Shown here: in pieces, positions 5,520 to 35,667 of the stretch
Numbering within the stretch: position 1 is the stretch's first letter
How the letters are laid out: the number at the start of each line of letters is the position of its first letter
Source of the DNA: an uncultured Gammaproteobacteria bacterium
Lineage (GTDB): Bacteria; Patescibacteriota; Microgenomatia; Woykebacterales; RBG-16-39-9b
Direction of reading: 5' to 3'
Length of the DNA: 64,000 nucleotides
Assembly: GCA_964367355.1 (NCBI GenBank)
Contig: CAYIWY010000006.1
Coordinates: 15,968-79,967 of the forward strand
Notes under the pieces: generated by a model
The model's database searches: none
What the model was told of the DNA's origin: nothing
The model's input: only the letters and a program-made list of their open reading frames with translations
Translations under genes and position numbers: made by a program

Positions 5520-6578
5520 CTACTTCAAAATGTAAACCGCAGCTTTAGTTGAACCACGTTTTTTGACAATTTTATTAACCATTAACCCTCTCAAATCCCG
5601 CAAGATAGTGTCATCAGAAACCATTGGAAATAATTCGCGAAAAATCGAATTATTTATTTGACTATTTTTATCTAAATACTCAATGATTTTAATTTGGCGG
5701 CTGTTTAAGGCAATTTGCCCTTGCTTCCCTTTCAGCCGGAGGTCGATTGAAAGTTTTTTAACTTTTTCTTTGATCCGGTTAATTTCAACTGATAATCCTT
5801 CGGTAAAGTATTCCAGCCAAGTTGTTAAATCTCGCTCTGACTCATCGACAATCAACTGATCAGAGGCGGACTGCAAAGCTTTGTAGTAACCGGCAATATC
5901 CTGATCGTAATATTCTTCCAAAGAAAAGAAGCGCTTCACATCGTAATCATCTTTAAAAAGACTCAAGGTTGCCACTGCCCTGGCGGTTCGACCATTGCCT
6001 TCAGTAAAAGGGTGGATGCGGACAATTTCGTATAAAGTAATTCCGGCTTTAAGAATCGGTGAAAGTTTCTTGGCTTCAGAGGAGTTTAACCAAGTTAAAA
6101 GATTTTCAACTTGAGTATTAATCTCGATTGGATCCGGTGGTGTGAAAGTAACTTGCCCAGTTTCAACTCCACGAACGACAACCTTAACCAACCGAAAACT
6201 ACCAACCTGGTCTTCGGGCACAAGTTTCTGAACTGTGAGTTTGTGAACCTGGAGAAGAGTTTCTTTGTCAATCTCGTCTTTGTTCTTACCTTCTTTATTA
6301 ATAAAATCAACAACGTTGCGGTAATTTAAGACTTCTTGAATATCTCTAGACCTAGCTTCGATTTGTTTACCTTCAATTACGTCTTTAGCTTCATCAAGTG
6401 TCAGGTCATTTCCTTCAATATGGGTTCCGTAATGAACTGCTCGAGTGAGCGCGTCTTCACGAAACTTTTCTTCCCAGACTGGAACTAGGGGTGAATTTTC
6501 GATAATCTCGCGCGCGGTTTCAATCTTGGCGACATTAGTTAAAATGGAATTTGTAATAACAAACTTTGGGTTGAACAT
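5520..6578 (-). CDS. Fic family protein (AMPylator/Doc-like) with C-terminal winged-helix region
   Basis: Canonical Fic motif HPFTEGNGRTARA. Confidence 0.85.
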   Translation of the reverse strand: MFNPKFVITNSILTNVAKIETAREIIENSPLVPVWEEKFREDALTRAVHYGTHIEGNDLTLDEAKDVIEGKQIEARSRDIQEVLNYRNVVDFINKEGKNKDEIDKETLLQVHKLTVQKLVPEDQVGSFRLVKVVVRGVETGQVTFTPPDPIEINTQVENLLTWLNSSEAKKLSPILKAGITLYEIVRIHPFTEGNGRTARAVATLSLFKDDYDVKRFFSLEEYYDQDIAGYYKALQSASDQLIVDESERDLTTWLEYFTEGLSVEINRIKEKVKKLSIDLRLKGKQGQIALNSRQIKIIEYLDKNSQINNSIFRELFPMVSDDTILRDLRGLMVNKIVKKRGSTKAAVYILK

Positions 6579-6695
6579 TGGAGTAATTATATCCCGCTAA
6601 AGCGTGATGTATTTTTCCTTAAGTCAAATTATAGCAGATAACCGCAGTATTACCGCAAAAAGAAAGACCGCCCCAGAAAAAATTTCTGAAACGGC

Positions 6696-6920
6696 CTAGC
6701 TACTCCTTTCTTTTACCCATTCACAACCAATGTGGCAAACGAGACAACGCCACCAATTCCTGTCAGCTGAAACTTTAGCCATGGCACCGTGATTTGAACA
6801 AGTCGGATATTCACGGCTGTAAAAAATAGCTAAACCAAACTCACCAAAGTCACCTTTAGGGTGAGTCATCGGAAGTTCCGTTAACCGCTCGCTCCGTACC
6901 CAAGTTGCTTGCCAGTCCAT
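6696..6920 (-). CDS. Small Cys/His-rich hypothetical protein (possible zinc ribbon)
   Basis: 74 aa; YPTCSNHG ... WWRCLVCHIGCEW; sits at the edge of a GC-rich islet. Confidence 0.35.
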   Translation of the reverse strand: MDWQATWVRSERLTELPMTHPKGDFGEFGLAIFYSREYPTCSNHGAMAKVSADRNWWRCLVCHIGCEWVKERSS

Positions 6921-7266: not shown

Positions 7267-8163
7267 ATGAGATCTCGTCTAATCATCTTTGTGTTCGCAA
7301 TGTTCGCAGTGTTCGCCATTGCGTCCACTTCTGTCGGGCAAGGAAAATCCACAGACCAGCAAGAGAAGTTTGTGGCTACCGAACCGCTTTCGGATCAGGT
7401 TCAGGTGCTTGTAAGCATTGTCGCCGAAAACGACAGCAACCCGATTCTCGTTAGTTCGAACAAGCGTAAGCAACGCGAAGCGACCTGCGAAAACCCTGAA
7501 GTCATGACAACCCTGGCGGTGTCTGAGGAAGAGCGAGATGCTTCTATCGAAGAGGCGACACAACGTCTTCCCCACGATGTTACTCCGGAAGAAGTTGAGG
7601 AAGTCAAGGCTGCGGCTCCGGCCCAAGAATTCACTCGTCAGGTCTACGTCGACAACGCTGAGGCTATCGGCGACCCACCCGACCCGAATCAGGATCAGGA
7701 TGGAAAGAAGTTCGAAGCGTGGGTTGAGAAGGTGAAGAAGGCTGGATGCAACACCCAGGCTGTTCCCTCAACGGGGGGACGACTTGCTTCACCGGCGGCC
7801 CAATACTTCACTTCCGGGTGGAAGTCGTGCACAAACTCCACCTGGACTACCAATTCGGTTGGTGCCACGCTGGTCAAACTGACTCAGACTTCGCAGTGGT
7901 ACGTTGACTCCCGCGGTGTGCCCTACTACCCGTCGCGCTCCTTCTACTCTTACGCAGGGTGGGGTTGGGACGAAAAAGGTGCCCCCCAAGGCCAAACCGG
8001 AGTGGTTACGATCTGGTATGGAAGTCCGCTTCAGTACTACAACTGGACTGGGCAGAACTTCCACTTTTCGCGTTTCGGGATCGAGCTGTTCACGAAGTAC
8101 CTCAGGGTAGATCAGTACTTTGGTTATCAAGGAAGGTGTGGTATTTTCCCATGGCGGCCATGA
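7267..8163 (+). CDS. Secreted hypothetical protein (signal peptide; Trp/Tyr-rich C-terminal region), GC-rich
   Basis: MRSRLIIFVFAMFAVFAIASTSVGQG signal peptide; coding GC about 52% against about 38% surroundings; no recognisable catalytic motif. Confidence 0.6.
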   Translation: MRSRLIIFVFAMFAVFAIASTSVGQGKSTDQQEKFVATEPLSDQVQVLVSIVAENDSNPILVSSNKRKQREATCENPEVMTTLAVSEEERDASIEEATQRLPHDVTPEEVEEVKAAAPAQEFTRQVYVDNAEAIGDPPDPNQDQDGKKFEAWVEKVKKAGCNTQAVPSTGGRLASPAAQYFTSGWKSCTNSTWTTNSVGATLVKLTQTSQWYVDSRGVPYYPSRSFYSYAGWGWDEKGAPQGQTGVVTIWYGSPLQYYNWTGQNFHFSRFGIELFTKYLRVDQYFGYQGRCGIFPWRP

Positions 8164-8315: not shown

Positions 8316-8415
8316 CACGAGAGAGAGACTCGTTACAAAAAACCGAGTCTGTAGCAACAATCTGGCGTGGGATTCAAAATAAACTCCGCCAGGATCAGGT
8401 TCGGTAAGATAGTTT

Positions 8416-8459
8416 GGGCGGGTACTTGTCAGCAATGACTCTTACCCGCCTCTTTTTTT
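8416..8459 (+). terminator. Rho-independent terminator
   Basis: GGGCGGGTA ... TACCCGCC stem followed by TCTTTTTTT. Confidence 0.6.
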
Positions 8460-8827
8460 GTCCACACATCTCTTTTGTGGATAAAAATATTTACCGCACT
8501 TTTACCGCAACAACTAAATTATTTATTTTTCTAATAAAGTTAGTACACTTTTTCAGTACAACTCAATTAATGTCCTTTAAATTGGGCGACTTGAACCTAA
8601 ATTTTGACTTTCTCCTCTAACCAATCTCTATAAGTCTAGTTTTAATTTGCGCTTTTAAGTCCTAGAGTAATTTGCCTATGGGTTAGATGGTGCGTTTTTA
8701 GGTTGCTTTAGGGTCGGAGTTAATTTTAATTAGTGAATTTCTAAGGCTAGAAAACGCCTTGCGGACTTCTAAAGGCTCTAAAAAGAAAAGACCAGCGAGA
8801 ACAACAGTTCCACTGGTCTTTGAATTA

Positions 8828-11548: not shown

Positions 11549-11611
11549 ACCTCCGAGGGTTGAAAACCCTTCAGTTTCTTCTCTAGGTTTTTTCCTCTCT
11601 TCACTTCCTCA

Positions 11612-11629
11612 GTGGACTCTAGAGTCCAC
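11612..11629. terminator. Perfect 18-bp palindrome downstream of clpB
   Basis: GTGGACTCTAGAGTCCAC followed by GGTTTTCG. Confidence 0.35.
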
Positions 11630-11655
11630 GGTTTTCGTGAAGTCGGAAATAAAAA

Positions 11656-11680
11656 CCGCTCCTTTAAATAAAAGGAGCGG
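11656..11680 (-). terminator. Hairpin terminator for the minus-strand small gene
   Basis: CCGCTCCTT-TAAATAA-AAGGAGCGG with T-run on the minus strand. Confidence 0.4.
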
Positions 11681-11688
11681 GTTAACTG

Positions 11689-11940
11689 CTACAACCAAGA
11701 AGGTTTTTCTCCCCTCTCACCTGTGTTAAAAAAACTCCGGGAAGACTCACCGTACCACCAAGTGCAACTTACGTTAGTACAAGACCAAAAACGAACCTTG
11801 CTGCAACTTGGAGAGCAAAAGCATTCTTCTCCATGTTCTATCCAACCAGGACAGTCCCAATTCATTTCTACCAACGAACCGCACCGGGGACAAACTTCCG
11901 CTTTCTCTGTTTCTGCCGAAACAGCAGCTTGATCTACCAT
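11689..11940 (-). CDS. Small Cys-rich protein (zinc-ribbon-like), GC-rich
   Basis: MVDQAAV... CPRCGSLVEMNWDCPGWIEHGEECFCSPSCS; GGAGG RBS before the ATG. Confidence 0.35.
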   Translation of the reverse strand: MVDQAAVSAETEKAEVCPRCGSLVEMNWDCPGWIEHGEECFCSPSCSKVRFWSCTNVSCTWWYGESSRSFFNTGERGEKPSWL

Positions 11941-12064
11941 CACTCTCCTCCTTGAGAAAATTTTGATTCTAACTTGCTTCAAGTTACAAACGCGCATGGT
12001 GTGATCGCAGCGATTATAACATACAAGAAAAAGGCTGAAATTTCTTCCAGCCTTTTTTGACCAA

Positions 12065-12361
12065 CTAATCCTGTCTCTTTCTTTGAAAGTGCTTCTTCAC
12101 TTGCCAAAGAGTAAATATCGCCCCCGATATTACCGCAACCCTGATATACCAAGCTGCTGCCTCATGCGAAATAGCCTGGCGGCTATAGTCGCGAGCGATT
12201 TGCATCAGTTGCTCGGCTCTTCTCGGATCTGGATCGTTTTCCAGAATCCTTTCCGTGTTATGTTCATCCTCCTCCAGTAAAGCTGCTTCTTCTGGATCTA
12301 AAAGAACCTCTGTATCCCTACGAAAACGGTGGTGCAGGAATTCGTCTGGGTGGTGAATCAC
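12065..12361 (-). CDS. Hypothetical acidic protein with C-terminal TM (tail-anchored), GC-rich
   Basis: 98 aa; acidic N-terminal region; C-terminal AAAWYIRVAVISGAIFTLWQV. Confidence 0.4.
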   Translation of the reverse strand: MIHHPDEFLHHRFRRDTEVLLDPEEAALLEEDEHNTERILENDPDPRRAEQLMQIARDYSRQAISHEAAAWYIRVAVISGAIFTLWQVKKHFQRKRQD

Positions 12362-12374
12362 CTACAACTCCTCC

Positions 12375-12701
12375 TTAAGCTACCTTCAACAGAATCAATC
12401 GTCTTGGCTTGGTGCTGAGAAACTTAACCGGCGCACTGCGCAGGTCAACACCACGTTTGCGCAATCGTGCAAACAGACGGTGTAAATCTTTGCCATAACC
12501 AGCCAGTTTTTGATCCCTGACAACCACCCATCTATCCGGGTATTTCAAAGTCCACTCAGCTCGGTGAGAGTCAAGAAAGATACAATCTGCCCGAAAACGA
12601 CTCATACTTTCGTCCATTTCCTTGATCTGCTGTGGTGTCAAGGTCAATGGCTCAATTTTGGCCCTGACTTGATCAGGTCTGTACCTACTAATCTTAGTCA
12701 A
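12375..12701 (-). CDS. Hypothetical protein, possibly DUF5678-like small domain, GC-rich
   Basis: 108 aa; W...YPDRWVVVRDQKLAGYGKDL resembles the small beta-rich DUF5678 pattern; weak. Confidence 0.35.
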   Translation of the reverse strand: MTKISRYRPDQVRAKIEPLTLTPQQIKEMDESMSRFRADCIFLDSHRAEWTLKYPDRWVVVRDQKLAGYGKDLHRLFARLRKRGVDLRSAPVKFLSTKPRRLILLKVA

Positions 12702-17991: not shown

Positions 17992-18810
17992 TTAAAGCCG
18001 TTGGCAGCTCGGGCAAAAGTGTGTTCCCCGTCCACCTACCCTTATCTTTTTTACTATAGTACCACAACGTAAACAAGGGTTACCTTCTTGGCGAAAAACG
18101 TTGAGGTTTTTGGCATGATTACCCTCTTTCCCATAAATATCGAGATAATCGTCGATACTGGTGCCTCGATCGGTGATTCCTTGGTCAAGAGCTTTGATAA
18201 TTCCTTGGTAAAGATCTTCTACTCGCTTAGCGTCAACTCTATTGCCGGCAGTTTCCGGATGAATCTTTGCGTACCAAAGTGCTTCATCTGCGTAGATATT
18301 GCCGACTCCAGCAATCTTTTTCTGGTCCATAATTAAGGTCTTTGTTGCTCGAGACGATTTCTCCAAAACTTTTTTAACAACGTCCAGTGTATAGTCTTTG
18401 GTAAACGGCTCTGGTCCAAATTCATCAGTAATTTTTTTCAAATCAGTTGAATTTTCAATTAACTTAACGTAACCAAACTTTCTTACCTCGCTAAAACGCA
18501 GTTCCCGTCCGTCCTCAAATTTGAAAGTTACGTGGGTAAAACGATCTTCTGGATCTGTTTGTTTGCGGATAAACAGTCGGCCGGAAAGTTTGAGGTGAAT
18601 TCCGATTGTACCGTCATTCTCAATTCCGAGTAACAACAATTTTCCAATCCGACCTGCCGAAACAAAATGGCGGCCAATTATTTTTTCAACTGCCTCTGCG
18701 TTAGGTTGCAACATTTTTGGAACGTCGTACCAAAGGTCAACAATTTTGTGACCAACAATTTCTTTTTCTAAATCCCTTCGAATTGTCTCAACCTCAGGAA
18801 GTTCTGGCAT
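17992..18810 (-). CDS. mutM: Formamidopyrimidine-DNA glycosylase (Fpg/Nei family)
   Basis: N-terminal MPELPEVE; C-terminal zinc finger CLRCG...CPSCQ. Confidence 0.85.
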   Translation of the reverse strand: MPELPEVETIRRDLEKEIVGHKIVDLWYDVPKMLQPNAEAVEKIIGRHFVSAGRIGKLLLLGIENDGTIGIHLKLSGRLFIRKQTDPEDRFTHVTFKFEDGRELRFSEVRKFGYVKLIENSTDLKKITDEFGPEPFTKDYTLDVVKKVLEKSSRATKTLIMDQKKIAGVGNIYADEALWYAKIHPETAGNRVDAKRVEDLYQGIIKALDQGITDRGTSIDDYLDIYGKEGNHAKNLNVFRQEGNPCLRCGTIVKKIRVGGRGTHFCPSCQRL

Positions 18811-18836: not shown

Positions 18837-19670
18837 TTAAAAAAGTGATAACTGCGCTTCTCTCTGGCAGCTTTTGCAGTAATGGGTTCGTCTGCCGCCA
18901 ATTTCCGTATATTCGATCGCAGTTTTACAAGTCGGACACGGCTTGCCGGTTTTTCCATAAACTTGCAAGTAATTTTGGTTGGTTCCAGGGTTCCCGAGTA
19001 AATCTCTATACGAATCAATCGTGGTACCTCGATGTTTAATACTTGAGGTTAAAACTTCTTTTATTGAATCTAATAAATTTTGAGCTTCCTCTTCAGTAAC
19101 CAATTTTGGTGCTCGGAAAGGGTTTATTTTCGCCAGAAACAAAGCTTCATCAGCATAAATATTCCCCACTCCAGCAATAGTTTTTTGGTTAACAATGGTT
19201 TCTTTAATCGTTTTCTTGTCGCTTCGATTTATTGATAAATTGAAACGTTCAGCTTTGATTTCAAACGGCTCTGGTCCTAGGTTCTTTTCAACTTCTTTGG
19301 AATCGTGAACAATAAAAGCCTCGGCTGCGCCGTTGCGGTCACAAAAACGAACTTGCCTTCCATCATCAAGATTTAAAACAAATCTTGTAAACTCGTCAGC
19401 TCGAGCGTCTTTACCTCGCAGCAGAAGTTGGCCGGTTAGTTTCAGATGGATAATTAAACTGTTGCCGTTAGAAAGTTCAATAATTAAGTATTTTGCCCGA
19501 CGAACCGCCCGCTCGATCTTTTTTCCAGTCAACATTTGGTCAAGGTCTTGACGAGATTTAATCCGCAGATTTTCACCTAAAGAAGTAATTTTGGCCTCAT
19601 CTATTCGTCTGCCAACTAAACGCTGGTTGATATCGTTGACAATTGTGGTGACTTCAGGAAGTTCTGGCAT
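18837..19670 (-). CDS. Second Fpg/Nei-family DNA glycosylase (paralog)
   Basis: MPELPEVTT N-terminus; C-terminal CPTCK...CKSCQ zinc finger. Confidence 0.85.
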   Translation of the reverse strand: MPELPEVTTIVNDINQRLVGRRIDEAKITSLGENLRIKSRQDLDQMLTGKKIERAVRRAKYLIIELSNGNSLIIHLKLTGQLLLRGKDARADEFTRFVLNLDDGRQVRFCDRNGAAEAFIVHDSKEVEKNLGPEPFEIKAERFNLSINRSDKKTIKETIVNQKTIAGVGNIYADEALFLAKINPFRAPKLVTEEEAQNLLDSIKEVLTSSIKHRGTTIDSYRDLLGNPGTNQNYLQVYGKTGKPCPTCKTAIEYTEIGGRRTHYCKSCQREAQLSLF

Positions 19671-19732
19671 AACGGGAATATTTTAACAGAAGAAAAAGTT
19701 TGAGGCGAAAACACAGATTGTGGTTTCGCCTC

Positions 19733-19936
19733 TTAGTTAGCTGGCTCTGTTGTCATAACAATCTGCCCCGGACAGTGGTCGCAGCGAAACTTTGCCTGCC
19801 GAAACAATTGTAGGGGAAGAGTTACCGGAACGAATTCGCATTTACACTGATCACAGTATGCAGAGAGAATACGAATTCGAGCTTCACTACTTTCGATTGG
19901 TTCTCCTCTTTCGTTTTCCGAATCAATGCTGTCCAA
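19733..19936 (-). CDS. Small Cys-rich protein (zinc-ribbon-like), GC-rich islet
   Basis: 67 aa; CDQCKC ... CDHCPGQ. Confidence 0.35.
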   Translation of the reverse strand: MDSIDSENERGEPIESSEARIRILSAYCDQCKCEFVPVTLPLQLFRQAKFRCDHCPGQIVMTTEPAN

Positions 19937-20370
19937 TATGGACTCTCCTTTCTATCTCCTACCTCAGAAAACCTCGTTTGAGATTTCCTCAGGAAGAGAG
20001 GCGAGAGAGTGTTTGAAGTTCTCTCGCCTCTACTTCGGTTGTTGGTGCTACGGCCAAGGTTTCTCAGGAGCGAGAACAACGTAATCGTTCGCGTCCGGGT
20101 CGAGAAAGTCCCTGATCCCGCTGAAGCACTGTATGTCGTCGTAAAGGCCTTCGTCTGAACTCCAGCCAACTTACTTCACCTTTCTCCTGAACAAACAGGA
20201 ACTAAACAACCGAATTGGAAATATTTTAGCATAAATTAAGTTAAAAGTCAATACTATAAGATATATCTTGCGTTCTTTCGAACTTAGGACGCGCTCGTAA
20301 TTATTCGAATTCCGAACAAAAATCTACGATCGTGGAATTTTGTTCTACTTATAAACGCTTGGCTGAAAGC

Positions 20371-21566: not shown

Positions 21567-21998
21567 TTACGACGAAGCGATGGGTTCCGGATTTTCCTGA
21601 TGCCAAAGGTCGGCGACCTCGGTGACGTACAGGCTGATGATTCGTGAAAGTTTCCTTTCAGCGTCTCGCCAGTCCAACACCTTGTCGTCGAACTTCACAC
21701 GGAGAGTCTGCGGATCGATGGTGACGTAGATGTCACGACCAACCCTCGTGTGCTCGCCGTACTCACTGCAGTCGAGGACGCGTCCGTCGTGAAACGAATT
21801 CGCCTTCGATGCGAGATCAACAAGCCCGATCCAAAGATCCAGCTCGGTGATTTGTTCCTGGCTTAGCACGACCACCTCCTTCGAACAGAGTACGAATTCA
21901 TTTGATTCACACTCTTTCTTAAGAAAACCAGCTTCCTGATTTGCTTGAGAGAGACTTCGGGTCGTGGCAAATGTTTTACATTCGCTCGCCGAAGTCAT
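21567..21998 (-). CDS. Hypothetical protein, GC-rich islet
   Basis: 143 aa ORF in a roughly 52-55% GC segment; no motif. Confidence 0.35.
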   Translation of the reverse strand: MTSASECKTFATTRSLSQANQEAGFLKKECESNEFVLCSKEVVVLSQEQITELDLWIGLVDLASKANSFHDGRVLDCSEYGEHTRVGRDIYVTIDPQTLRVKFDDKVLDWRDAERKLSRIISLYVTEVADLWHQENPEPIASS

Positions 21999-22028
21999 GC
22001 TCTTCTATTCAGTTGTCCAGGATGGAAA

Positions 22029-22235
22029 CTAGGAGTACCGAGAGGAGGGTGTCCAGGGCTCGGGTTCGGGATCTTGCGGATAAAAACCCCCATCGTCCAC
22101 GTCCCGCGAATCTCCCGATGTGTCCTCCAAGTCGTCCTCGTCTTCCCTATGGCGTTCATCGTACTCAGCATAGGCGGCTTCCGCCTCTGCGTCGTACCAC
22201 TTCGCCAACATTGACCCTAACCATGCGACTAACAT
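22029..22235 (-). CDS. Small highly acidic hypothetical protein, GC-rich islet
   Basis: 68 aa, Asp/Glu-rich; could be spurious. Confidence 0.25.
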   Translation of the reverse strand: MLVAWLGSMLAKWYDAEAEAAYAEYDERHREDEDDLEDTSGDSRDVDDGGFYPQDPEPEPWTPSSRYS

Positions 22236-22569: not shown

Positions 22570-23510
22570 GTAGGTGCCAGACTTAGGTTAGTTACAACAT
22601 TAAGAAAGGACACCTACCATGAATTACATTAGCAACCCTTATGCCCCTAAGGCAAGGAAGGAAGCAACTAATTGGGTGAAGAAAGGTTTGAATATTTCGG
22701 TTGTAGCCAGAATGTATGGGGTTAATAGAACGACTCTGTGGCGCTGGCTAAGAAAAGCTTCGAAACACTCTCGAGAGTTCATACCCACCTTACCCTCCCG
22801 ACCAAAATCTCATCCTAACCAAGTACAGGAGGAAACAATTAGAAGGTTAGTGGAACTGAGAGCCAAACTAGGCAGATGTGCACCGGTACTACACGCTCAC
22901 CTAAACTTAGAGGGGTATAAGATTAGCCTTTCTAGTGTTGGGAGAATACTGAAGAGAAAAGGCTTGACCAGAAAGAAGAAAAGAGCCAAATACTACGTTG
23001 CCTTGCCAAGACCACTTGCAGATTGTCCTGGAGCCTTGGTACAAGTGGATACCATTCACTTTGTTAAGACTAACGGCAGCCGGTTTTATGTGTACTCTTT
23101 GATAGATACCTACTCAAGGTTAGCTTACGCTGAGTACCACCCCAAGCTGAGACAGACAATAAGCCTTAAAGTTATTCAAAATGCCCAGAAGAGCTTTGGT
23201 TTTAAGTTTAGTACTGTGCAGACCGATAATGGACCAGAGTTTAAAGACTATCTGAATATAAGTTTAAGGAGAAATAAAGTCTTGCTGAGACACTCAAGAG
23301 TCAGGAAACCCAATGATAATGCTCATGTGGAGAGGTTTAATAGGACTATTCAGGAAGAGTGTTTTCAAGGCAGATTGCCTAACCAAAGAACCGCCTCTAG
23401 GCAAATAGAAGAATATTTAATATATTACAACCAAGAAAGACTACACCTAAGTCTGGGGCTGCAAACACCGACCCAATATGTTGCAAAGGTCCTGAACTAA
23501 TTACGAATGT
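22570..23510 (+). mobile_element. IS481-family insertion sequence (approximate ends)
   Basis: Single rve-type DDE transposase; terminal GCCAGAC (22575-22581) and GTCTGGC (23509-23515) form short inverted ends. Confidence 0.5.
22619..23500 (+). CDS. IS481-family DDE transposase (integrase core domain)
   Basis: N-terminal HTH; VQVDTIHF ... LIDTYSR ... TDNGPEF ... HVERFNRTIQEE. Confidence 0.85.
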   Translation: MNYISNPYAPKARKEATNWVKKGLNISVVARMYGVNRTTLWRWLRKASKHSREFIPTLPSRPKSHPNQVQEETIRRLVELRAKLGRCAPVLHAHLNLEGYKISLSSVGRILKRKGLTRKKKRAKYYVALPRPLADCPGALVQVDTIHFVKTNGSRFYVYSLIDTYSRLAYAEYHPKLRQTISLKVIQNAQKSFGFKFSTVQTDNGPEFKDYLNISLRRNKVLLRHSRVRKPNDNAHVERFNRTIQEECFQGRLPNQRTASRQIEEYLIYYNQERLHLSLGLQTPTQYVAKVLN

Positions 23511-31379: not shown

Positions 31380-31454
31380 TGGTGGCTGGGGTGAGATTCG
31401 AACTCACAACCGTAGCCTTATGAAGACTCTGCTCCGCCATTGAGCTACCCAGCC
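31380..31454 (-). tRNA. tRNA-Met(CAU), elongator-type (or the tRNA-Ile2 lysidine substrate)
   Basis: Manual fold: G1-C72, D-arm GCTC/GAGC, anticodon loop UUCAUAA, T-arm GUGAG-UUCGAAU-CUCAC, encoded CCA. Confidence 0.8.
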
Positions 31455-31491
31455 AAAGTGGGCAAATTATATCAGAGGTAGATAAAACGCA

Positions 31492-31518
31492 CAAATCCGT
31501 CTTTTAGAGACGGATTTG
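31492..31518. terminator. Perfect 11-bp-stem hairpin between the two tRNA genes
   Basis: CAAATCCGTCT-TTTAG-AGACGGATTTG. Confidence 0.45.
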
Positions 31519-31521
31519 CCT

Positions 31522-31596
31522 TGGTTGCGGGTGCCGGACTCGAACCGGCTTAAGGAAGATTATGAGCCTTCCGGGATTCCATACCCCCCACCCGCG
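31522..31596 (-). tRNA. Initiator tRNA-fMet(CAU)
   Basis: 5' CGCGGGU and 3' ACCCGCA-A-CCA give the C1xA72 mismatch diagnostic of bacterial initiator tRNA; loop CUCAUAA; T-arm GCCGG-UUCGAGU-CCGGC. Confidence 0.8.
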
Positions 31597-35591: not shown

Positions 35592-35667
35592 TGGTGGGCC
35601 AGCTTGGATTTGAACCAAGGACCCCTACTTTATAAGAGTAGTGCTCTAACCGCTGAGCTACTGGCCC
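35592..35667 (-). tRNA. tRNA-Ile(UAU)
   Basis: Manual fold: acceptor GGGCCAG/CUGGCCC, D-arm GCUC-AGCGGUUA-GAGC, anticodon stem CUACU/AGUAG, loop CUUAUAA (anticodon UAU), T-arm CUUGG-UUCAAAU-CCAAG, discriminator A plus CCA; Ile-type body. Confidence 0.8.

Follow-up and report, generated by a model that had tools for sequence, protein, structure and literature searches.

The three small cysteine-rich open reading frames (ORFs) considered here lie dispersed in a 64,000-nt stretch of contig CAYIWY010000006.1 from an uncultured groundwater bacterium (hereafter the window, meaning this whole stretch), and they are probably three independent, mutually unrelated genes for zinc-ribbon micro-proteins rather than members of one mobile family. 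One of them, ORF1, is a core gene, while ORF2 and ORF3 occupy slots whose content varies between strains. The original prediction, made from the sequence, had placed all three in foreign-looking, GC-rich islets and had suggested that these islets constitute a family of small mobile modules. The ORFs themselves, with their paired cysteine motifs, were confirmed on the minus strand at the positions it gave, save that ORF2 is shortened here to 83 aa. Each forms a separate expression unit, consisting of a promoter-like site, a strong Shine-Dalgarno (SD) site, the ORF and a hairpin terminator, and they are the sole intergenic small ORFs in the window with both an SD site and at least four cysteines.

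The proposed common family found no support in the sequences. Pairwise Smith-Waterman scores among the three proteins range from 19 to 31, and 29-71% of shuffled sequences score as high or higher; the cysteine spacings also differ. A concatenated query of ORF2, ORF3 and a 98-aa protein encoded beside ORF2, run by exhaustive HMMER search against 1.84 billion cluster representatives, returned three disjoint and non-overlapping sets of matches. The three proteins therefore appear to be unrelated and to form no single family. Two pairs of potential metal ligands can be recognized in each, namely C41xxH44...C59xxC62 in ORF1, C17xxC20...C30...C42...C46...C54...C59 in ORF2 and C28xxC31...C52xHC55 in ORF3, and cysteine makes up 5-10% of their residues as compared with 0.37% in the backbone proteins. 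No repeats, target duplications or common flanks linking or bounding the islets were found, the exception being a separate element of approximately 100 nt at 11549-11654, which is described below. Searches of PHROGs, NCBIfam, PADLOC and the Pfam toxin and antitoxin families produced no hit that rose above noise with any of the islet proteins, and with no match in these libraries or to phage and plasmid records, the suggestion that the islets carry toxin-antitoxin or anti-defence genes was not borne out.

Base composition gives no indication of foreign origin for the three ORFs. A GC content of 48-52% had been claimed for the islets, but over 6696-6920, 11689-12701 and 19733-19936 it measures 46.7%, 46.0% and 45.6%, values that fall at the 85th-95th percentile of equal-size windows in a stretch of 39.8% GC overall. 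The GC content at the third codon position (GC3) of ORF1, ORF2 and ORF3 is 0.41, 0.39 and 0.40, near the gene mean of 0.353±0.068, while at the second position (GC2) it reaches 0.51, 0.56 and 0.43 against a gene mean of 0.354±0.056. Because the excess is located at codon position 2 and GC3 is near normal, it can be attributed to amino-acid content, that is, to the codons for Cys, Gly, Trp and Arg. The slightly raised GC of these genes is thus a composition effect within normal variance and carries no foreign-DNA signature. The 98-aa gene and a neighbouring 108-aa gene have a mildly raised GC3 of 0.47. By GC3, none of these five genes deviates in the way of a horizontally acquired island; only the fourth islet of the original prediction and a gene at 7267-8163 do so (0.60-0.65).

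Relatives of the window were reached by exact-protein look-ups of cluster members, which led to groundwater metagenome contigs; Hainich-series contig names, for example Hain_H52_01um, are found among the exact-protein matches, as is an NCBI contig of 125,227 nt. The 0.1-µm filter label, together with the gene content, suggests an ultra-small bacterium or one of the candidate phyla. Contig L081 represents the window's own genome, and the main comparison was made with a relative of 26 kb (contigs L097 and L098) whose backbone is ~82% identical to the window. Among species-representative genomes the closest FolD is at most 49% identical, and the lineage therefore has no close cultured relative.

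ORF1 was found wherever its locus could be followed. Its ATG is preceded at 3 nt by the SD sequence AGGAGGA, with an extended -10 further upstream. Homologues span 61-99% identity, and in all seven of the good ones (68-99%) the six putative ligands C41, H44, C59, C62, H63 and C66 are invariant. In every related contig recovered (L081-L090, L091, L092, L093 and L097) the homologue stands just upstream of a Fic gene on the same strand, an adjacency kept down to 67% identity in ORF1 and 77% in Fic. Between L097 and the window, ORF1 is 84%, ClpB 93% and Fic 94% identical. Being conserved and syntenic with Fic in relatives, ORF1 is a core, vertically inherited gene of the lineage that stays beside Fic, and not a mobile islet. 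An extra gene of 84-92 aa with the motif EDPIV..G separates ORF1 from Fic in L097 (10201-10479) and L093 (3387-3650); the window is without this gene, and the ORF1 terminator stands in its place.

ORF2 begins at the ATG at 11940, which gives 83 aa instead of the 102 of the longer reading (11689-11997), and both the gene callers and the sole close homologue, P0001, concur with this start. The SD site AAGGAGGAG (11953-11945) lies 5 nt upstream of the ATG. Exhaustive HMMER search of the same 1.84 billion representatives revealed ~24 remote family members with 26-43% identity (E 1e-10 to 7e-4). In an alignment of 25 sequences C17, P18, C20, C30, C46, C54, C59 and W61 are invariant and P31, G32, C42, G77, P80 and W82 nearly so, such that seven cysteines are invariant or near-invariant; the family motifs are CPxCG, DCPG(Y/W), MVC, CGNA, WWYREP and MGxRPxW. 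No match was found in Pfam, PHROGs or the PDB, where a search with the family profile also gave nothing significant, although some members match assorted Zn_ribbon models of Pfam below threshold. PDB sequence searches with the ORF1 profile and with ORF3 were likewise without significant result. ORF2 thus defines a previously unannotated family of small proteins with seven conserved cysteines. An AlphaFold2 (AF2) model of ORF2 is all-beta with five strands and of moderate quality, with a predicted local distance difference test score (pLDDT) of 72. Foldseek searches with this model returned nothing significant, the best hits being at E 2.1 in the PDB and at E 0.025 with a TM-score of 0.40 in BFVD. 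A tblastn search of phage and plasmid records with a family member gave no match; for a pattern scan of viral contigs the family alignment is too divergent.

The position of ORF2 was compared over six contigs covering the gap between FolD and ClpB, in which ClpB is convergent to the genes on the FolD side. In the window the gap holds a DUF5678-like gene (108 aa), a gene for a tail-anchored protein (98 aa) and ORF2. L104 has the first two of these, L097 has two DUF5678 paralogues (105 and 112 aa) and the tail-anchored gene (94 aa), L096 has the DUF5678-like gene followed by a 176-aa membrane protein gene of 32% GC, and L103 has the tail-anchored gene (99 aa) only. In the more distant L099, whose ClpB is 73% identical, the gap contains genes for a membrane protein, a member of the ORF2 family (P0030) and PurS, with P0030 near the 3' end of ClpB. 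ORF2 is therefore missing from this slot in four relatives (L097, L096, L104 and L103).

The terminator that follows the 98-aa gene provides a fixed point in this comparison. Homologous hairpins are found in L097, L104, L103 and L096, and in the first three of these the hairpin directly abuts the ClpB stop codon. In the window, ~480 nt follow it, comprising the ORF2 promoter, ORF2, its terminator and the double-hairpin segment of ~100 nt. The hairpin-proximal stretch 12041-12013 is common to L096, where it stands ahead of another gene; in the alignment of the ORF2 -10 the two read CTTGCATTTTAGAAT and CTTGTATGTTATAAT. ORF2 is thus a strain-variable, self-contained promoter-ORF-terminator unit placed between the ClpB stop codon and an older, common terminator. 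Hairpin terminators had been proposed at the borders of the 11.7-12.7 kb islet, and they were indeed found, at 11680-11656 and 12057-12028.

The 108-aa and 98-aa genes are, by comparison, old lineage residents of the FolD-ClpB gap. They lie 13 nt apart in a unit closed by the hairpin at 12057-12028. The 98-aa product agrees with the predicted tail-anchored acidic protein: it is acidic over residues 1-68, has a single C-terminal hydrophobic segment at 68-86 and ends in a basic tail, and its homologues in the same slot are 76% (L104), 65% (L097) and 41% (L103) identical. With an isoelectric point (pI) of 10.6, the 108-aa protein is strongly basic. Its proposed likeness to DUF5678 (PF18929) takes the form of a weak match over residues 53-83, which at 17.5 bits remains below the gathering cut-off of 23.2. 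The 112-aa orthologue in L097, with an identity of 46% over the whole protein and of 55% in the domain region, scores 31.4 bits. DUF5678 is a family without known function, for which nothing relevant was found in the literature, and the 108-aa protein has no relative in viral contigs and no significant sequence match in the PDB. Neither a toxin nor an antitoxin domain was found in the two proteins (Pfam, NCBIfam, PADLOC) that would mark them as a type II toxin-antitoxin pair. In L096 the DUF5678 gene occurs without the 98-aa gene, and in L103 the reverse is the case, which speaks against their being an obligate pair.

Between the ClpB stop codon and the ORF2 terminator lies the double-hairpin element. 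A copy of 77% identity is present at an unrelated locus in L097 (17911-18011) in the opposite orientation, where it forms a clean insertion of 101 nt relative to an empty site in L081 at ~17700. The junctions in L097 read GGTTTATT and GGTTCATT, with GGTTYATT at both, and a single GGTTTATT occupies the empty site. There are no clear terminal inverted repeats and no ORF, and one copy each was seen in the 64-kb window and in the 26-kb relative. These features give it the appearance of a small mobile element without coding capacity, similar to a miniature inverted-repeat transposable element (MITE).

ORF3 lies between a CAP-domain gene and the second of two Fpg genes (Fpg2), a slot that is covered by one relative only. 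In that relative (L097 and L098), four ORFs occupy the interval: a 277-aa gene, a 55-aa hydrophobic one, a 78-aa one with eight cysteines and a 52-aa one that is DUF7387/HicB-like. The 78-aa protein (L098 2329-2565) has no similarity to ORF3. On the upstream side, the ORF3 promoter has 10 of 12 consensus matches plus the TG and is conserved in L098 at 91% identity, a block of 63 nt containing hairpin H1 is 94% identical to the relative, and the SD leader AGAAAGGAGAG is common to ORF3 and the 78-aa gene. On the downstream side, the 44-nt block with hairpin H3 is 100% identical at L098 2571-2614, compared with ~82% for the backbone, and comes there after the unrelated 78-aa gene. ORF3 is thus a strain-variable gene in a cassette-like position, in which the coding sequence alone differs between a common leader and SD site and an identical terminator. 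The absence of ORF2 from four relatives and the replacement of ORF3 in one mark both as strain-variable accessory genes. The proposal that islets might be absent at the same positions in relatives is accordingly upheld for these two, and not for ORF1, the 108-aa gene and the 98-aa gene, which are resident.

Hairpins of the type GAGGCGA-N17-19-TCGCCTC are confined to the CAP-Fpg2 locus, where none would be expected by chance. They occur twice in the window (19702-19732 and 19998-20030) and three times in the relative (L098 1936-1968, 2218-2248 and 2573-2603), in each case after a small gene, and only H3 among them bears a T-run. Further small genes of the relative fill slots that are empty in the window. 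Its DUF7387/HicB-like ORF lies upstream of Fpg2 (L098 2647-2808), and a 211-aa protein with 12 cysteines (L098 3728-4363) is inserted between the two Fpg paralogues. Neither the 78-aa nor the 211-aa cysteine-rich gene is related to the other small ORFs; a resemblance of ORF3 to the 211-aa protein proved marginal (z 2.5) and was limited to a nine-residue SAxCDxCxC motif. An apparent tandem of ORF3 and the 78-aa gene in L107 was also rejected, the assembly having a coverage of 1.35x and the '78-aa' ORF being a frameshifted fragment of Fpg. In the window the two tandem Fpg/MutM paralogues (17992-18810 and 18837-19670) share nucleotide blocks of 76-79% identity at their starts and in a mid-gene segment.

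ORF3 probably encodes a protein. It is unlikely, by the same token, that 19.7-20.25 kb gives rise to a structured RNA without coding function, or is what decay has left of a larger gene, with cysteine pairs that arose by chance. Such a reading would account for the finding that ORF3 matched only itself among 5.8 billion clusters and 1.84 billion representatives, and for its weak codon-usage score of 0.01 (0.32±0.07 for genes). It would also fit the 286-nt leader (19937-20222), which folds better than shuffled sequences (z -4.3) and whose first 184 nt stand in place of the 277-aa gene of the relative. The genes of these islets had been thought to escape standard annotation; in fact ORF1, ORF2 and both the 98-aa and the 108-aa gene are among the calls of NCBI, ENA and Logan, and ORF3 alone is missing from the NCBI calls, which again would suit a non-coding region. 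Nonetheless, frame 0 clearly outscores the other two, the SD sequence AAGGAGA is well placed 7 nt ahead of a TTG start in a leader held in common with the 78-aa gene, and the stop codon abuts the terminator. The C-x2-C ... C-x-H-C arrangement, spaced by ~20 residues, and a cysteine content of 7.5% also speak for a coding gene, and there is no Rfam match in the leader, the Rfam matches of the window being tRNAs only. A different doubt attaches to ORF1, which might work together with the neighbouring Fic protein, for instance as its regulator, inhibitor or targeting subunit, and not be an independent gene. Their constant adjacency on one strand is a weak functional lead in this direction, yet the contigs are all close relatives with generally conserved gene order, in which adjacency may be mere inheritance. 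A strong terminator separates the two genes in the window, and the 84-92-aa gene intervenes in relatives. Fic carries its own Fic_N-like stretch, GTHIEGN, as read from its sequence (Pfam Fic_N gives E 0.022 only), while the (S/T)xxxE(G/N) motif is not seen in ORF1. A partnership with Fic is consequently quite improbable.

The original proposal, in which the islets are copies of a module that carries zinc-binding toxin-antitoxin, anti-defence or regulatory genes on horizontally acquired GC-rich DNA, now appears extremely improbable. It draws on the absence or replacement of ORF2 and ORF3 in relatives, on the cysteine-rich genes and the small HicB-like/DUF7387 ORF in the variable slots of the relative, and on the mobile-looking element beside ORF2. 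It is opposed by the lack of mutual similarity, common flanks and repeats, by a GC3 near the genome mean, by the synteny of ORF1 and of the DUF5678/98-aa pair, and by the empty searches of toxin-antitoxin, defence, phage and plasmid collections. Another rival is a cassette system, in which small genes of the CAP-Fpg2 locus, and conceivably those next to ClpB, would be exchanged site-specifically or under the direction of hairpins, with the GAGGCGA hairpins as recombination sites comparable to attC. The restriction of these hairpins to one locus, each after a small gene, the perfect identity of the 44-nt block and the replacement of nothing but coding sequence all fit. However, the surroundings of the locus showed no gene for an integrase or a tyrosine recombinase, in a scan for integrases that did not take in the remaining ORFs of the window, the sole transposase nearby is of IS481 type and 2.7 kb away, and attC core motifs cannot be read in the hairpins. 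The pattern comes from two genomes and one locus, recent homologous recombination can give short identical tracts, and H3 resembles an ordinary intrinsic terminator. Site-specific exchange is therefore very unlikely, and the broader version, in which short gaps beside terminator hairpins serve in this lineage as cassette sites for hairpin-directed, precise swapping of small cysteine-rich genes between a conserved leader with its SD site and a conserved hairpin, perhaps in connection with the ~100-nt element, is just as doubtful.

Several observations nevertheless weigh against three independent genes in one core and two variable positions. The ~100-nt element that adjoins ORF2 looks mobile, and the fully identical 44-nt block together with the repeated hairpins after small genes could mean a dedicated site as opposed to homologous recombination. 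The presence of an ORF2-family gene near the 3' end of ClpB in L099 would also be compatible with an ancestral ORF2 that other relatives have lost, instead of an insertion. As ORF3 has no homologue, its translation is argued for only by the SD site, frame preference and terminator. The structure model of ORF1 is poor (pLDDT 53) and unsuited to structural search, so that the case against a common origin is one of sequence and not of fold. Finally, it is from motifs only that the three products are predicted to bind zinc.

On the favoured reading of three independent genes, the contents of the slots would change through homologous recombination between conserved flanks, or by insertion beside terminator hairpins. 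This would amount to strain variation of the replacement-islet type and would involve no self-mobility. ORF1 and ORF3 would each fold around one zinc ion and ORF2 around two, and all three might act through the binding of partners. ORF2 and ORF3 are acidic (pI ~4.7) and have no DNA-binding signatures, for which reason they are more likely to bind proteins than DNA.

Small zinc-finger proteins of this kind are not unusual in prokaryotes. Of the 282 Haloferax volcanii proteins shorter than 70 aa, 43 have a pair of C(P)XCG motifs, making this a common class (PMC10716476, PMC6562870). One-domain zinc-finger micro-proteins such as HVO_2753 and HVO_0758 occur many to a genome, are mutually unrelated and are mostly unannotated (PMC6562870, PMC10716476). 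The present proteins resemble them in being built of ~60-85 aa around paired C(P)xCG/CxxC knuckles; ORF2 opens with a CPxCG knuckle, and one member of its family weakly matches HVO_2753_ZBP. They differ in that no significant sequence match to any of the haloarchaeal proteins was found, in that the ORF2 family has seven conserved cysteines plus the WWYREP and MGxRPxW motifs and matches no Pfam model, and in that the host is a groundwater bacterium and not a haloarchaeon.

The slots themselves recall replacement-type flexible genomic islets, which are strain-variable stretches between conserved genes that are exchanged through homologous recombination in their flanks. At both ClpB-FolD and CAP-Fpg2 the flanks are conserved while relatives carry unrelated content between them. 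Unlike such islets, the slots here are tiny (one small gene, 0.2-0.5 kb), and one exchanged piece corresponds exactly to a coding sequence between a common SD leader and a common terminator. Phage 'morons' are autonomous promoter-ORF-terminator units inserted between genes. The anatomy of ORF2 is exactly this, lying as it does between the end of ClpB and an already existing terminator to which ClpB is directly adjacent in relatives, but its surroundings are no prophage, there are no PHROG or phage tblastn matches and its GC3 is host-like. With integron cassettes the CAP-Fpg2 locus shares small co-oriented ORFs of no known function, each before a hairpin of one family; here, however, no integrase is seen, attC core motifs are missing and there are just two or three units. 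In addition, ORF3 and the 78-aa gene have their own SD leader, and ORF3 stands behind a conserved promoter ~290 nt upstream.

Table 1. Features of the window discussed in the text, with window coordinates (position 1 is the first nucleotide)
Feature	Position	Strand	Remarks
Fic gene	5520-6578		ORF1 on its upstream side, both on one strand
ORF1 terminator hairpin	6665..6697	-	15-bp stem then T-run; overlaps stop codon; -20.8 kcal/mol, z -4.8
ORF1	6696..6920	-	74 aa, zinc-ribbon-like; C41-x2-H44 ... C59-x2-C62, H63, C66; motif CSNHG...CLVCHIGC
298-aa gene	7267..8163	+	signal-peptide-like N-terminus; 54% GC, GC3 0.60; variable slot between ClpB and ORF1
Double-hairpin miniature element, ~100 nt	11549..11654	.	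between ClpB stop and ORF2 terminator; non-coding
ORF2 intrinsic terminator	11656..11680	-	CCGCTCCTTT-loop-AAAGGAGCGG then T5; -17 kcal/mol, z -5.4
ORF2	11689..11940	-	83 aa from ATG at 11940; motif CPRCG...CPGW...CFC
ORF2 5' region	11941..12027	-	extended -10 TGTTATAAT at 12021-12013 and SD AAGGAGGAG
Ancestral hairpin terminator	12028..12057	-	after 98-aa gene; homologous hairpin in L097, L104, L103, L096
98-aa protein gene	12065..12361	-	AGGAGG SD, GTG start; resident of FolD-ClpB slot
108-aa protein gene	12375..12701	-	GGAGGAG SD, TTG start; DUF5678-like; first of two-gene unit with 98-aa gene
44-nt block with hairpin H3	19691..19734	-	GAGGCGAAACC...GGTTTCGCCTC and T-run; hairpin starts right after stop; ORF3 terminator
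ORF3	19733..19936	-	67 aa, orphan; C28-x2-C31-x-C33 ... C52-x-H-C55; motif CDQCKC...CDHCPG
Sigma-70-like promoter and 286-nt leader	19937..20251	-	promoter 20251-20223; hairpin H1 at 20030-19998
Islet 4	21567..22235	-	ORFs of 143 aa (21567-21998) and 68 aa (22029-22235); GC3 0.60 and 0.65
IS481-type (rve) transposase gene	22619-23500		adjoins islet 4

Clearly foreign-looking composition is limited to islet 4 and the 298-aa gene. The former has two small ORFs of deviant GC3 beside an IS481-type gene and no family matches in Pfam, PHROGs, NCBIfam or PADLOC. The contig of the relative ends at its border (window ~21445), as expected at a repeat or an insertion. The 298-aa gene, the strongest compositional outlier near the ORFs considered here, has divergent homologues (44-53%) in the corresponding position of L092 and L091, and a 234-aa ORF of L097 has the same MRSRLII N-terminus. 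Next to it, 8414-8819 is AT-rich and intergenic with no convincing ORF, and is 73% conserved with the relative over ~410 nt, while in the relative the two flanking genes (298 aa and 155 aa) have been exchanged or have diverged strongly; this region may be regulatory or specify a non-coding RNA. Elsewhere in the window ARAGORN identified a tRNA-Ile with the anticodon TAT (35592-35667), which is uncommon in bacteria, and two adjacent tRNA-Met(CAT) genes are located at 31380-31596.

Had the zinc-binding modules proved to be a hidden mobile family, they would have constituted a new class of accessory element, but the evidence does not support this. Hairpin-directed swapping, should it prove true, would be a new way of shuffling micro-protein genes without an integrase. 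As a matter of method, the three ORFs offer a caution, in that micro-proteins rich in Cys, Gly and Trp increase the GC content locally by way of codon position 2 and can be mistaken for foreign islets. Two leads emerge from the comparison: the replacement of coding sequence alone between identical regulatory flanks, and the mobile-looking hairpin element of ~100 nt. Collectively, the core small genes (ORF1 and those of the DUF5678-like and tail-anchored proteins) and the variable ones (ORF2 and ORF3) have now been mapped in a poorly known groundwater lineage.

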